8,018 nucleotides of DNA from a virus (Duplodnaviria; Heunggongvirae; Uroviricota; Caudoviricetes). The stretch is taken from IMG/VR virus record IMGVR_UViG_2663763286_000023; one strand, 5' to 3'. Shown one piece after another: positions 863 to 3,971 of this stretch. The notes under the pieces are model-generated. The model was not told the origin of the DNA and did not search any database. It saw only the letters and a program-made list of their open reading frames with translations. The stretch's first letter is position 1. The number at the start of each line of letters is the position of its first letter. A program made the translations under genes and the position numbers.

Positions 863-890
863 TTGACAACTGACAAGTGACTTCAGTCAG
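863..890 (+). promoter_or_regulatory. TTGACA hexamer followed by a cluster of TGAC repeats (TGACAAC, TGACAAG, GTGACTTC, then inverted GTCAG); candidate promoter, operator or iteron-like site
   Basis: Read directly from the sequence at the 3' edge of a very AT-rich stretch (about 700-860). No convincing -10 hexamer at canonical spacing. Confidence 0.25.
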
Positions 891-900
891 AATCATCACA

Positions 901-963
901 CGCCCGGTACGGATGGATCCCTTTTCAAATATTCCATGGACGGCACAGTCTGAGTACCGGGCG
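901..963 (+). other. Perfect 10-bp inverted repeat (CGCCCGGTAC at 901-910, GTACCGGGCG at 954-963) with a 43-bp spacer
   Basis: Seen directly. Lies in the presumed 5' leader or upstream region of the 1024-1668 gene. Confidence 0.4.
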
Positions 964-984
964 CTACCTTCAGTTGTATTGCTA

Positions 985-1012
985 AGCCGCCGCTGGTGGC
1001 TTTTCTTTTTTG
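985..1012 (+). terminator. Terminator-like hairpin and U-tract (stem AGCCGCC / GGTGGCT with one G-U pair, then TTTTCTTTTTT) just upstream of the ribosome-binding site of the 1024 gene; possible attenuator
   Basis: Stem 985-991 pairs with 995-1001, followed by a T-rich run 1002-1012, then GGGGGAG and ATG at 1024. Confidence 0.3.
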
Positions 1013-1023
1013 TAGGGGGAGCT

Positions 1024-1668
1024 ATGGATAAGAAAATATGCGTTGTTTCGATGAGCGTCGGCAAACCGGCGTCAATGACTGCTGCATGGATCAATAACGA
1101 GCTGATAATGGCTGAGCGGACCAGCTACCCTGAACGCCGCCGCGATATGGAACTCCAGCTGCTGCGCGAATTGCGAGAAAAAGAGGAGAAGGGTTTTATC
1201 GTGCTGGTGGAAGAGGAAAACAGCTTTATTACTGGTCGAGTTGGCCAGCGTGTAAGGTTGCGCGATCCCTTCATGAACGGCAGGCCGGTACTAATTGAGG
1301 CAATGCAGATTTATAAGGAGCTGGAACGCCAGAAAGCAATCAAGTTACCGCGCAAGGAATCCGGCAAATACATCCTCCACCAAAGCATCTTCGATTCCGA
1401 ACACGATAAAAAAGGCGATGAGTTTTTCAACATCAACTGGAGCGAAATAACGACAGAGCATGTTCTGACGTTGTTATGCTGCTTCGCAACAGAATACAAC
1501 AACGTGGTAAGCGCAGACTACATCAGGACAATGACAGACACCATTACTAAACAAGACAACGAATATTCACCATATGAGCCATTTGTAAATATGATAAAAG
1601 CATTTTATCGGATGGAGCTCGCTAAAGTTCCTCAAGGTAAATTAACAGGTAAGGATAACATCTTTTAA
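1024..1668 (+). CDS. Hypothetical protein, 214 aa, no family recognised
   Basis: ATG at 1024 preceded by a GGGGGAG Shine-Dalgarno-like run (1014-1020); stop TAA at 1666-1668. The six-frame ORF extends upstream to a GTG at 877, but that stretch overlaps the inverted repeat and terminator-like hairpin, so the 1024 start is preferred. Confidence 0.55.
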   Translation: MDKKICVVSMSVGKPASMTAAWINNELIMAERTSYPERRRDMELQLLRELREKEEKGFIVLVEEENSFITGRVGQRVRLRDPFMNGRPVLIEAMQIYKELERQKAIKLPRKESGKYILHQSIFDSEHDKKGDEFFNINWSEITTEHVLTLLCCFATEYNNVVSADYIRTMTDTITKQDNEYSPYEPFVNMIKAFYRMELAKVPQGKLTGKDNIF

Positions 1669-1721: not shown

Positions 1722-2411
1722 TCATAAATCTGATAGCCACTTACTATCTATGGACTCAATCTCCGTCAACGGAATTGATGGGAAAAAATATCCTTGAGCG
1801 CCCCATAGCCCTATCCCTTTTAATAACCTATAACAATCAATGTTTTCGACGCCTTCAGCGATGATATTCGGACATAACTTTTTTAAATTGCTAATAATGA
1901 CATCAAAATGAGGCTTAATCATATGCTCTTGCAAAAATGACTTATCAAGTTTTATTGCATGGTATTTATTTTTAATTAATGCTTTCATGGTGGCGTTACC
2001 ACTTCCAAAATCATCAAGCCAAACATTATCTGTCAAAGTCAGTAGAAAGGATATGACGTAATCCTCATCGCTTAAATCAGGATAGTTTTCTGATATCTCA
2101 ATCGCTATAAATTTATTGTTTATTAGTAGCTCTTGAATTTGTTTATTACCATATATATATAAACAGGTCTCATAATCTACATTGATAGAGCATAATATAT
2201 TATGGCATTCAAAAAAACACTTATATTTGATTATTGTGTTAAGTTGAGATGTTAGCAAGTTAATCTTCATCTTGCTTGTAAACATACCTAATACTCTCTG
2301 AGTAGGAAGAATAGCCCCCTCGTTGGAATAAAATCTGCTTAACACTTCCACTGCTATCAACTTGTTAGTGCTTGTGGAAATGATTGGTTCTACTATGTAG
2401 ATAACTTCCAT
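1722..2411 (-). CDS. Standalone EAL-domain protein (c-di-GMP phosphodiesterase family, YdiV/PdeH-like), 229 aa, with catalytic motifs apparently intact
   Basis: Translation contains EVLSR (EAL motif), NVD, IEISENYP, DDFGSG (DDFGTG motif), KLDKSF, AEGVEN (EGVE motif) and QGYFF. ATG at 2411-2409 with GAGGG upstream. Gene is about 30 percent G+C by eye. Confidence 0.85.
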   Translation of the reverse strand: MEVIYIVEPIISTSTNKLIAVEVLSRFYSNEGAILPTQRVLGMFTSKMKINLLTSQLNTIIKYKCFFECHNILCSINVDYETCLYIYGNKQIQELLINNKFIAIEISENYPDLSDEDYVISFLLTLTDNVWLDDFGSGNATMKALIKNKYHAIKLDKSFLQEHMIKPHFDVIISNLKKLCPNIIAEGVENIDCYRLLKGIGLWGAQGYFFPSIPLTEIESIDSKWLSDL

Positions 2412-3669: not shown

Positions 3670-3857
3670 GTTTTCTCTCCAGCCTGTGCCAAGGCTTTGA
3701 CGTCGAAGTTATGTCCTATTCGGTTTTATTGTATCAGATAGTGTGGACATATTATTTCACGTCCGGCGTAGTCGGTCATAGCTTTTGCCTTCCACCTTTT
3801 CCACGCCGTATCTAATCGGCGCCCGATGAAATGTTATTGCACTAATATATTTCAATA

Positions 3858-3882: not shown

Positions 3883-3971
3883 CACCACATAGATAGCTTG
3901 TTCATTGGTAATCCTTAACAAGTGACTAGTGTTAAATTCCGTTCAAACATGATGTGAATTGTTCTAATTAA

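Follow-up and report, generated by a model that had tools for sequence, protein, structure and literature searches.

A conserved, structured non-coding leader with a predicted intrinsic terminator upstream of mat in P1-like phage-plasmids

What lies between the promoter and the start codon of mat in P1-like phages can be read in two ways. In the P1 reference record, the nucleotides equivalent to positions 913-1023 of the window, i.e. the whole 8,018-nt stretch analysed here (IMG/VR record IMGVR_UViG_2663763286_000023), are assigned to a 251-aa Mat protein (P1 gp006), of which they form the first 37 codons. An initial annotation of the window, made from the sequence alone, described a structured leader in front of a 214-aa gene and compared it with a transcription attenuator or an antiterminator leader. 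The window comes from a phage-plasmid of the P1 type, and its 214-aa gene is the mat gene of P1; coordinates were converted as window = P1 - 1803. In the present study, we asked whether 863-1023 is coding sequence or a leader, and what such a leader might do.

First, the upstream part of this region consists of promoter elements. The cluster of TGAC repeats at 863-890 (TTGACAACTGACAAGTGACTTCAGTCAG) listed in the initial annotation is present, and when matched to the P1 annotation it comprises the -35 hexamer TTGACA of the sigma-70 promoter Pmat (863-868, + strand; P1 2666-2671), the -22 box AAGTGACTT of the Lpa-dependent late promoter LPmat (875-883, + strand; P1 2678-2686) and the -10 hexamer CAGAAT common to both promoters (888-893, + strand; P1 2691-2696). 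Upstream of these, the C1 repressor operator Omat, with the core ATGCACTAATAAAT, occupies 825-842 (feature Omat of the P1 record, 2628-2645) and has nearly the same sequence in P1 and in the window. The Pmat -35 element is kept as TTGAC(A/T) in the clades L008, L095 and L013. The LPmat -22 box resembles the -22 boxes of LPpro, LPlyz, LPdar, LPs and LPsit, and a search for the -22-box pattern within the window returned only LPmat and LPpro. The distance from the -10 hexamer to the first base of helix H1, described below, is 7 nt in the window and in the L008 and L095 clades, and we infer from the sequence that transcription starts near A900.

Second, the start of mat was examined. The 251-aa form is annotated in both NC_005856 and NZ_CP077484, with a 37-codon extension that translates as MDPFSNIPWTAQ...; the frame of ATG 913 continues without a stop into mat in the window, P1, L003, L094 and L012, and ATG 913 is invariant in all 16 aligned leaders. 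If 913-1023 were the N-terminus of this protein, the hairpins described below would be incidental features of coding sequence. However, several different indels of 1-2 nt break the long frame in 79 of the 139 P1-group loci, leaving it intact in 60; the distance from ATG 913 to the ATG of the MDKKIC start is 111 nt in these 60 loci, 110 nt in 69, 112 nt in 4 and 109 nt in 6. The frame of ATG 913 is out of phase with mat in the L008, L095, L096 and L013 clades. MDKKIC is invariant, but the N-terminal extensions of three clades show no relationship at the protein level, and the conserved nucleotides of the leader fall in different reading frames in different clades. An open frame from 913 is in itself weak evidence for translation, because stop codons are scarce in all three frames of the leader. 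As read from the sequence, there is no Shine-Dalgarno (SD) motif before 913, in contrast to AGGGGGAG (1014-1021, + strand) before 1024, and a purine-rich SD is found 3-5 nt 5' of the MDKKIC ATG in every clade; ATG 913 is itself part of helix H2. Most database homologs have been called at 213 aa by PGAP, and nearly all of the full-length family representatives are ~185-270 aa long and match from profile position 1-5. An AlphaFold2 model of the 214-aa form reached a pLDDT of 92, with residues 1-10 at 96 and the first beta-strand formed by residues 3-9 (a model using only 19 close homologs, at a pLDDT of 55, was uninformative). The homolog lengths, the family profile and this model all suit the short form, and place the true start of the 214-aa mat coding sequence (CDS) at the MDKKIC ATG (1024-1668, + strand), in agreement with the ribosome-binding site and ATG given in the initial annotation. 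Positions 913-1023 are non-coding by these comparisons, the 251-aa annotation of P1 mat appears to be wrong by 37 codons, and the N-terminal reading is largely refuted, with hardly any probability left to it.

Third, the leader is predicted to be a folded RNA of ~123 nt, in which a 5' three-way junction is followed by a variable linker and an intrinsic terminator, and then by the SD and ATG 1024. The perfect inverted repeat listed in the initial annotation was recovered, with 10-nt arms at 901-910 (CGCCCGGTAC) and 954-963 (GTACCGGGCG) that are 100% complementary and 43 nt apart; among 2000 dinucleotide-preserving shuffles of 863-1023, 0.6% contained a perfect repeat of 10 bp or longer. The folding energy of 900-1012 was -39.4 kcal/mol, compared with -30.1 +/- 3.2 kcal/mol in shuffles (z = -2.9). 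The minimum free energy (MFE) and centroid structures and the RNAalifold consensus supported a junction domain (901-963, + strand) consisting of helix H1 (901-910/954-963), helix H2 with the conserved loop CCCUUUUCAAAUAUU (913-917/933-937) and helix H3 (942-944/948-950), all on the + strand. The single-stranded linker that follows (964-983, + strand) was delimited by its poor identity between clades, 15-27%, and varies in length from ~9 to 30 nt.

The structure of this domain is conserved between clades. Double (compensatory) changes were observed at 4 of the 10 pairs of H1. Paired cells made up 96% over the whole structure and 97% in H1, compared with ~40% when the partner was slid, and the covariation score was 0.214 against 0.141 in shuffles (reached in 0 of 500), although these changes are drawn from ~5 clades and represent few independent events. 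G.U pairs occur in all helices and would be A.C on the opposite strand, and thus the fold belongs to the + strand RNA. Within the P1 group, the H1 polymorphisms C901U, A956G and C962U each yield a G.U pair, while a C901A variant breaks the terminal pair. The loops CUUUUCAAA and CCAYGGACGGYAC are nearly invariant across clades, above the conservation of the CDS, and the H2 loop CUUUUCAAA is unpaired in both the MFE and the consensus folds. The L004 leader, which is partly alignable, has ACAAGCCAG in common and forms two competing long-range helices, was not counted as covariation. Judged by nucleotide identity to diverged clades, the junction, at 73-78%, is more strongly constrained than the mat CDS, at 52-70%. 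An Rfam assignment, which had been put forward as a check on the leader, was not obtained: no family of Rfam 15 matched 863-1023 at the gathering threshold, and at E<=10 the same region returned only chance-level matches (the best, MEG3_2, at 15.8 bits against a gathering threshold of 60). The only genuine Rfam matches in the window were the C4 RNA and its a1/b1 sites, on the other strand; this copy of the P1 C4 antisense RNA lies 340 nt away.

Fourth, a predicted intrinsic terminator separates the junction from mat. The G+C-rich stem placed at 985-1001 by the initial annotation, and the U-tract after it, were found as a hairpin at 984-1002, AAGCCGCC GCT GGTGGCTT followed by TTCTTTTTTG, with a stem of 8 pairs (984-991/995-1002), 5 of them G-C, a 3-nt loop (GCU) and the U-tract UUUUCUUUUUU at 1001-1011; the whole element (984-1011, + strand) was delimited by a terminator scan and by folds of homologous hairpins. 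The hairpin has an energy of -11.5 kcal/mol (z = -2.6) and combines a short-loop, G+C-rich stem with a run of U, the features from which intrinsic termination is predicted. It is the single terminator-like site on the + strand in 400-1800, but shuffles contained a mean of 1.2 such sites, so that one in 1.4 kb equals the chance expectation and the significance of the terminator rests on its conservation. Six homologous hairpins fold at -11 to -15 kcal/mol, and at least 5 U lie directly 3' of the stem in all 10 lineages examined (at least 9 in the window). The position is likewise conserved: a hairpin and U-tract stand directly before the SD in L003, L008, L095, L096, L012, L013 and L004, and also in the non-alignable leaders of L264, L265 and L271. 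These features suggest that termination occurs at 984-1011 in vivo. Together with the frame indels and the covariation in H1, the conserved hairpin before the SD bears out the proposal of a structured non-coding leader in front of the 214-aa gene.

Could the hairpin serve the genes upstream instead? A gene of the ref family (RecA_dep_nuc) lies 5' of mat and in the same orientation in P1, L264, L266, L269 and L271, and a hairpin at this site would stop transcripts of an operon formed by ref and its neighbours, the leader fold being a by-product and mat being expressed by leakage. Against this, the annotated and conserved promoter (-35, -22 box and -10) is located 3' of ref and 5' of the hairpin, with a constant spacing to H1, and the hairpin adjoins the SD of mat at 150-240 nt from the ref stop codon. 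In the window, the gene upstream of the mat leader is divergent, yet the element is unchanged; the L008 clade carries a separate terminator 5' of the promoter; and the junction is more constrained than the CDS. We consider it improbable that the hairpin is primarily the terminator of upstream genes. As a separate observation, the upstream gene is often a co-directional ref, and the hairpin may also act as its terminator.

The element is tied to mat throughout its distribution. The core motif was found 70-90 nt upstream of mat in all 103 matches with enough flank, once per contig, and among the viral contigs the core DNA pattern never occurred apart from mat. The covariance model R1 detected a single copy each in the window and in the first 50 kb of P1. 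The layout of a terminator before the SD recurs in Mat homologs of no more than 44% identity. Such a leader is absent from L269, which has a 53-nt spacer, from L266 and L270, in which mat is coupled to the upstream gene, and from L263, where the terminator lies upstream of the promoter-like site. In the more distant relatives L004, L263-L265 and L271, mat and the gene that follows it in a baseplate/tail operon overlap.

Herein, we propose that 863-1023 comprises the mat promoter and a non-coding 5' leader with an obligatory read-through terminator checkpoint, from which a leader RNA of ~110 nt is made; we regard this as the probable reading. Transcription would begin near 900, driven by the sigma-70 promoter Pmat, which C1 represses, and by LPmat, which overlaps it and depends on Lpa, and the first 63 nt would fold into the three-way junction closed by the 10-bp H1, a helix that begins at the 5' end of the RNA. 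Past the variable linker, RNA polymerase would reach the intrinsic terminator ~12 nt before the mat SD. Since there is no room for a promoter between the terminator and the start codon, every mat mRNA would be a read-through product. The default product would be a leader RNA of ~105-112 nt, and only a fraction of the transcripts would enter mat; in the most distant relatives, this fraction would also carry the baseplate/tail genes to which mat is translationally coupled. Gene 26 is served by a late promoter of its own in P1 and L008, where read-through would be needed for mat alone. The initial annotation had allowed that the hairpin might instead be the terminator of an upstream small RNA, and this is the same object as the leader: an RNA of ~110 nt made from Pmat/LPmat, whose read-through form is the mat mRNA. 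No account of the mat leader, and no mapping of P1 transcript ends or 3' ends, was found in the published literature.

Is read-through controlled by alternative folding of the leader? The attenuator or antiterminator leader suggested by the initial annotation holds in so far as a terminator is predicted in the leader, and is not supported with respect to mutually exclusive hairpins, as no conserved alternative pairing was found. A classical antiterminator helix was rejected: with the 5' arm of the terminator blocked, the best alternative structure was worse by 8-13 kcal/mol in six of seven clades, and by 4.9 kcal/mol in the P1 group; the pairing of GCUACC with GGUGGC that P1 shows is not conserved. 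An intrinsic terminator that ends the leader directly upstream of the ribosome-binding site is shared with trp-type attenuators, riboswitches, T-boxes and Bgl-Sac RAT leaders, and the junction resembles a small riboswitch aptamer, i.e. a three-way junction closed by a P1-like helix. In contrast to the classical attenuators, the mat leader has no conserved competing helix, an unconserved linker, no Rfam family match, and a leader ORF with neither an SD nor a conserved peptide. A hairpin pairing the U-tract with AUG GAU AAG AAA, which would sequester the start codon, is part of the MFE structures of the P1 group, L003, L008 and L095, and is absent from those of L094, L096, L012, L013, L004, L264 and L265; start-codon sequestration by such a hairpin is a P1-specific possibility. 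Pairing of the H2 loop as an anti-SD for mat was rejected because the duplex energies were no better than those of shuffled loops in most clades.

Translation of the leader might couple to termination in another manner, with a ribosome starting at AUG 913 crossing the terminator and blocking the hairpin, so that read-through would report translation. The invariance of AUG 913 would fit this, as would its frame, which in every clade either remains open across the terminator or, in L095 and L143, ends 5 nt short of the stem, while each of the other two frames contains stops in ~3 of 7 clades. However, the AUG lacks an SD and sits within the G+C-rich fold of H1 and H2, 13 nt from the 5' end; H2 (AUGG/CCAU) accounts for its invariance, the encoded peptide shows no conservation, and stop codons are rare in this region as a whole. 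A translation-coupled attenuator is therefore very improbable in our judgement, and leader-peptide attenuation from AUG 913 was rejected on the missing SD, the unconserved peptide and the scarcity of stops in all frames.

With no conserved antiterminator helix and a freely varying linker, control of read-through must act on the polymerase, or there is none. Two options follow for the proposed read-through terminator. In the first, factor- or RNA-mediated processive antitermination would act on polymerase. In the second, there would be no control, and the terminator would set a low, fixed output of mat; the junction would then protect the 5' end, or act as or within a small RNA. Any regulation of read-through is an inferred reading. 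For the protective role, a 5'-terminal stem of the ompA type has a geometry that protects mRNA from 5'-end-dependent decay by RNase E, and H1, which starts no more than ~1 nt from the predicted 5' end and keeps a conserved spacing to the -10 hexamer, shares this geometry. Conserved loops and a terminator are not needed in such a stabiliser, which would explain H1 and not the rest.

In the first option, the junction would be a processive-antitermination element, either a cis-acting RNA like put or the site of a phage or host antiterminator (lambda N/nut-like or Q-like), and the terminator would be passed only at the right time, e.g. late in infection. The element stands directly behind a late promoter, and a conserved module and a conserved terminator joined by a free linker are expected if the module acts on polymerase; moreover, essential baseplate/tail late genes lie behind the terminator in L004, L263-L265 and L271. 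Against this, P1 is not known to encode an antiterminator, and none was found in the literature, only mat depends on read-through in P1 and L008, and the fold of Mat is that of a terminase nuclease rather than a regulator. At the P1 late promoters examined besides LPmat, leaders are short (~30-90 nt), and no terminator was evident by eye in their first 60 nt. On balance, processive antitermination through the junction is a tentative possibility. Mat itself, which has no Pfam match, was considered as an autoregulatory RNA-binding protein or antiterminator and was rejected, since the AlphaFold2 model and structure comparison assign it a terminase-nuclease/RuvC-like domain.

Comparison with known antitermination systems gives partial likeness. 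As in the lambdoid PR'-6S/StxS-tR' units, a late promoter leads into a short non-coding RNA with a strong intrinsic terminator at its end, ahead of the late gene(s): here the LPmat -22/-10 elements at 875-893, a leader of ~110 nt, the terminator and mat. Unlike the lambdoid Q systems, the mat leader lacks a TAnnnT pause element in 900-930 (+1 to +30), no Q-binding/pause element was found for it, and its promoter belongs to the P1 type, with a -22 box for Lpa, and overlaps a sigma-70 promoter repressed by C1. With regard to a Q-family gene, from whose protein a Q-binding element would be defined, the protein examined was Mat, which has no Pfam match and folds like a terminase nuclease domain. 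The leader also contains a conserved three-way junction, and a single gene (P1) or a single operon (distant relatives) lies behind the terminator rather than the whole late region. The put RNA of HK022 is a cis-acting, factor-independent processive antitermination element of two stem-loops whose spacing to the terminator is not critical. The mat leader shares with it the general layout only, i.e. a conserved structured RNA at variable spacing between a phage promoter and a terminator, whereas its fold is a junction closed by a 5'-terminal helix rather than two stem-loops; no sequence similarity between the two is known. A further hypothesis is that in P1-like phages the mat unit, which stands at the head of the baseplate/tail operon in the more distant relatives, is controlled by processive antitermination through the junction as a new cis-acting RNA, which would make polymerase resist the terminator 20-50 nt downstream either directly, as put does, or by way of a loaded phage or host factor, and that the terminated RNA might be a small RNA as well; we consider this reading unlikely.

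The terminated transcript of ~110 nt could also be functional in its own right, as a trans-acting small RNA made upon C1 derepression or late in infection, with mat as a by-product of read-through, which is compatible with the proposed read-through terminator. The terminated leader RNA of a lambdoid late promoter can be a functional small RNA, as in the PR'-tR' precedent of StxS/6S, which acts as an Hfq-bound small RNA (PMC7547250). A structured 5' domain, an A/U-rich linker and a terminator with a long U-tail form the layout of many enterobacterial small RNAs, and the leader offers the terminator hairpin, the U-tail and an accessible, conserved CUUUUCAAA expected of the Hfq type. The near-invariance of the CUUUUCAAA and CCAYGGACGGYAC loops, above that of the CDS, is consistent with such a function, and on an Erwinia chromosome (L013) the leader is intact beside a decayed mat remnant. 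However, when the loops were scanned for duplexes against the entire P1 genome, no target was convincing (the strongest non-self duplex, of 13 bp with one G.U within the pro coding region, was at about chance level), and the motif never occurs apart from mat. In our estimate, a trans-acting role is doubtful. The C4/immI leader of P1 (RF01695, RF03163) likewise is a regulatory RNA in a C1-controlled leader, in which C4 pairs with a/b sites to block translation of icd/ant. The mat leader is unrelated to it in sequence and structure, has no a/b repeats and gave no match to the C4 model.

As a classic model phage, P1 also represents, as its prototype, a large group of phage-plasmids carrying genes for resistance and virulence. 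The apparent error in the annotation of P1 mat hides a regulatory element, and has spread into RefSeq records including that of the present plasmid. The RNA motif of the mat leader is absent from Rfam, no description of it was found in the literature, and it separates an essential gene from a promoter that C1 represses and Lpa activates. Late regulation in P1 has been thought to consist purely of promoter activation by Lpa/SspA. The mat leader implies that termination, and possibly antitermination or a leader-derived small RNA, takes part in the control of late genes, and antitermination, if true, would add a layer of elongation control to the late regulation of P1. Moreover, a terminator before the SD in homologs of 44% identity or less, with mat coupled to baseplate genes, suggests that this is an old and conserved design in the lineage.

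Over positions 700-1700, the window showed 100% identity with plasmid p99_1145-3 of E. coli O111:H8 and 95-99% identity with approximately 670 further records, nearly all of them plasmids, and the remainder of the window matched phage P1 prt/pro and related genes. By sequence similarity, the window is a P1-like phage-plasmid whose 214-aa gene is mat ('maturation control') of P1. With coordinates converted as window = P1 - 1803, the P1 reference record NC_005856 places the C1 operator Omat at 825-842, the -35 element (TTGACA) of the sigma-70 promoter Pmat at 863-868, the -22 box (AAGTGACTT) of the overlapping late promoter LPmat at 875-883, and a -10 element, annotated for both promoters, at 888-893. 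The TGAC repeats described in the initial annotation are present and correspond to the -35 element and the -22 box. The -22 box agrees at every position with the one common to the P1 late promoters LPpro, LPlyz, LPdar, LPs, and LPsit, whose pattern is AAGT(G/T)ACT(T/A), 4 nt, and then TAnnnT. A perfect 17-nt C1 operator consensus (ATTGCTCTAATAAATTT) was also observed at 747-763 on the minus strand, between the c4 module and mat, where it presumably acts as operator for the divergent c4 promoter; another operator-like sequence, with 2 mismatches, is located at 3836-3852 on the plus strand, upstream of LPpro (3920-3938). The same reference record starts mat, as a 251-aa coding sequence, at ATG 913 (P1 2716), which is in frame with ATG 1024 in the window, and RefSeq annotates this long form on plasmid p99_1145-3 as well. 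Officially, then, the region noted as a leader belongs to a coding sequence, and whether it is coding or leader has to be settled before anything else.

The arms of the inverted repeat at 901-910/954-963 were perfectly complementary over 10 nt, and when the region was shuffled with dinucleotides preserved, a repeat of that length turned up in 0.6% of cases. The terminator-like hairpin at 984-1002, followed by TTCTTTTTTG, was the sole such plus-strand site within 400-1800. Folding of 900-1012 bore out both elements, giving a domain at 901-963 plus the hairpin (-39.4 kcal/mol, z = -2.9). Sequences lying upstream of mat homologs, taken from genomes, viral contigs, and metagenomes, provided 16 distinct leaders in approximately five alignable clades (P1; Pantoea-type L003/L007/L094; Salmonella-type L008/L098; L095/L143/L013; and L096/L097/L012). 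RNAalifold and independent pair counts agreed on four helices, namely H1 (901-910/954-963), H2 (913-917/933-937, with a 15-nt loop), and H3 (942-944/948-950), which form a three-way junction on the plus strand, and the terminator stem. Compensatory double changes were observed in 4 of the 10 H1 pairs (CG/UA/AU/UG, GC/AU/GU, UA/CG/UG, and AU/GC/GU), and paired cells amounted to 96% for the whole structure and 97% for H1, compared with 37-48% when the 3' partner was slid by 1-3 columns. The covariation score of the 16 leaders was above all 500 shuffles, with few independent covariation events because few clades were sampled. The G.U pairs found in every helix would be A.C on the other strand, so the structure is that of the plus-strand RNA. 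Among 62 P1-group haplotypes, the H1 polymorphisms C901U, A956G, and C962U each change a Watson-Crick pair to G.U, and the only other H1 variant, C901A, leaves the terminal pair unpaired. The -10 hexamer lies 7 nt from the first H1 base in the window and in the L008 and L095 clades, and this fixed distance suggests that H1 begins at approximately +1/+2 of the transcript, as judged from the predicted start.

The identity of the other clades to the window was 73-78% in the junction, 61-76% in the terminator and U-tract, 52-70% in the mat coding sequence, and 15-27% in the linker (964-983), the length of which varies from approximately 9 to 30 nt between clades; this pattern indicates two constrained modules with a free spacer between them. 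Each viral contig with the core motif CTTTTCAAA...TTCCAYGGACGG contained it a single time, and all 103 occurrences with sufficient flanking sequence were 70-90 nt upstream of mat. The covariance model R1 of the leader detected a single copy in the window and likewise a single copy in the stretch of P1 searched, its first 50 kb. An Erwinia sp. chromosome contig (L013, 1365-1662) carries an intact mat leader (104 bits with R1) downstream of a HigB/HigA pair, followed by only approximately 20 mat codons before the frame decays; from its sequence, this locus is a prophage remnant whose leader has survived better than the gene itself. In four human-gut metagenome contigs (L151-L154, e.g. L152 75-1953), a low-G+C phosphoglucomutase-like gene (446 aa) is joined to an internally deleted, 168-aa mat inside the terminator hairpin (AAGCCAC gaat GGTGGCTT). 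The 3' half of this hairpin and the U-tract resemble P1; its 5' half is foreign yet still complementary. Such joins may stem from real recombination, from engineering, or from chimeric assembly.

It is hardly credible that 913-1023 encodes the N-terminus of a 251-aa Mat, as in the reference annotation. The frame from ATG 913 into mat is open in the window, which is weak evidence for coding given how rare stops are in all three frames of the leader region, and five independent lines agree in saying that the segment is not the Mat N-terminus. The distance from the ATG 913 equivalent to the ATG of MDKKIC, the first residues of the 214-aa Mat, is in frame (111 nt) in 60 of 139 P1-group loci and is otherwise 110 nt in 69, 112 nt in 4, and 109 nt in 6, reflecting several distinct indels in the Shine-Dalgarno (SD) G-run, U-tract, and stem. 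MDKKIC is invariant in the protein alignment, in which the N-terminal extensions annotated in three clades bear no relation to one another. Across clades, three different frames run through the well-conserved nucleotides UUCCAUGGACGGCAC, owing to differences of 1-2 nt in the length of the H2 loop. A length of 213 aa is already assigned to the majority of database entries, and an exhaustive profile search showed nearly all full-length representatives of the family (approximately 185-270 aa) matching from profile position 1-5. The AlphaFold2 model of the 214-aa form (86-sequence alignment) had a pLDDT of 92, with residues 1-10 at 96 and beta-strand 1 at residues 3-9. Moreover, AGGGGGAG precedes ATG 1024, whereas ATG 913 lacks an SD and lies inside a helix. 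The frame breaks, the unconserved extensions, and the covarying helix thus uphold a non-coding structured leader over the annotated coding sequence.

The terminator appears from these comparisons to be older than the junction. The leaders of four distant homologs (L004, L264, L265, and L271; at most 44% identity to Mat) could not be aligned with the P1 type, and all four have a G+C hairpin and at least 5-7 U right before the SD and ATG, e.g. AGCCGCC-uccg-GGCGGCU-UUUUU, AGACCGC-cucugu-GCGGUCU-UUUUAUUUUU, and GGGCCGCUG-cuua-CAGUGGCCC-UUUUUUU. L264 (2360-2500) and L271 (2340-2500) have leader blocks in common (UUUCGACA...UCAGCGCGA), with their own long-range helix and terminator, and may represent a second leader family at the same position. 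The leader is absent from L269 (53-nt spacer) and from L266 and L270 (coupled to the upstream gene), and in L263 a terminator lies upstream of a promoter-like site. In the leaders compared, the gap between U-tract and SD nowhere has room for a promoter, suggesting that mat is transcribed only by read-through wherever the hairpin is present. The hairpin is very unlikely to be the terminator of the upstream gene ref. Although ref often precedes mat in the same orientation and its transcripts would stop at the hairpin too, a conserved promoter lies between the two, the hairpin adjoins the mat SD rather than the ref stop codon, a separate terminator is present upstream of the promoter in L008, and in the window ref is replaced by a divergent c4-icd-ant module with the leader element unchanged. 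This module comprises, where P1 has ref, a C4 antisense RNA (RF01695, 71.7 bits; 477-562), a1/b1 target sites (RF03163; 631-683), and then an icd-like ORF (208-429), all on the minus strand. Its content marks it as an additional module of the immI type, oriented divergently from mat; three pairs of icd and KilAC-antirepressor genes are present in the source plasmid (L001 989-2325, 6400-7730, and 14080-15410), and homology with ref-carrying P1 relatives starts at approximately 826. On the other side of mat, an EAL-domain gene (229 aa; 1722-2411, minus strand), at the position of res/mod in P1, is convergent with mat, the two stop codons lying only approximately 50 nt apart.

In relatives, mat is followed directly by homologs of P1 genes 26, 25, and 7, encoding baseplate wedge and tail proteins (PHROGs 1269, 1722, and 1906), as observed in L003 (3713-6123), L004 (3630-6180), L008, L263-L265, and L271. 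In L004, L263-L265, and L271, the next gene overlaps mat and is translationally coupled to it, which places essential tail genes behind the terminator there. Gene 26 has its own late promoter in L008 and in P1 (LP26), and the P1 arrangement, with genes 26-25-7 approximately 75 kb from mat, looks derived. Structured leaders with an intrinsic terminator are a well-known kind of element; the mat leader is at odds with the reference annotation of mat, and Rfam contains no riboswitch, leader, or sRNA family that matches it. Neither the mat leader, termination before mat, nor P1 transcript-end mapping was found described in the literature searched, the P1 genome paper lying outside that search. The mat gene was reported to be essential from amber mutants, and upon CRISPRi knock-down it was not scored essential (EOP 0.28; PMC10695390).

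Several candidate mechanisms were rejected. Of the attenuator or antiterminator leader proposed initially, the conserved terminator, forming by default behind a constrained domain, was retained, and the mutually exclusive antiterminator helix was not. With the terminator 5' arm blocked, the best alternative fold lost 8-13 kcal/mol in six clades and 4.9 kcal/mol in P1; since the linker is free to vary and no alternative fold is competitive in those six clades, such a helix is not conserved. Pairing between the H2 loop and the SD was no better than in shuffled controls in most clades, and a search of the P1 genome for sequences that the conserved loops could target yielded nothing convincing. 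Leader-peptide coupling from AUG 913 is possible but unsupported, as this AUG has no SD and stops are rare in all frames. In P1-group read-through RNA, the terminator U-tract can pair with the mat AUG GAU AAG AAA (1002-1035, plus strand), leaving the SD in the loop, and this predicted hairpin could dampen mat translation; it is present in P1 and some clades only and is not conserved.

Herein, we propose that an intrinsic terminator forms by default behind a sequence-constrained 5' domain that would act independently of spacing. Two readings would fit. First, a constitutive attenuator may keep mat expression low, with the junction stabilizing the 5' end and/or making the approximately 110-nt RNA a functional sRNA. 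The lambdoid StxS/6S RNA is a precedent for a terminated leader RNA acting as an sRNA (PMC7547250), which the mat leader resembles in its predicted terminated RNA of approximately 110 nt. Second, read-through may be set at RNA polymerase, by a put-like RNA or a nut/Q-like factor, a reading made attractive by the late promoter upstream and the tail genes downstream in distant relatives. If the junction were such an antitermination element, the interest of the finding would rise.
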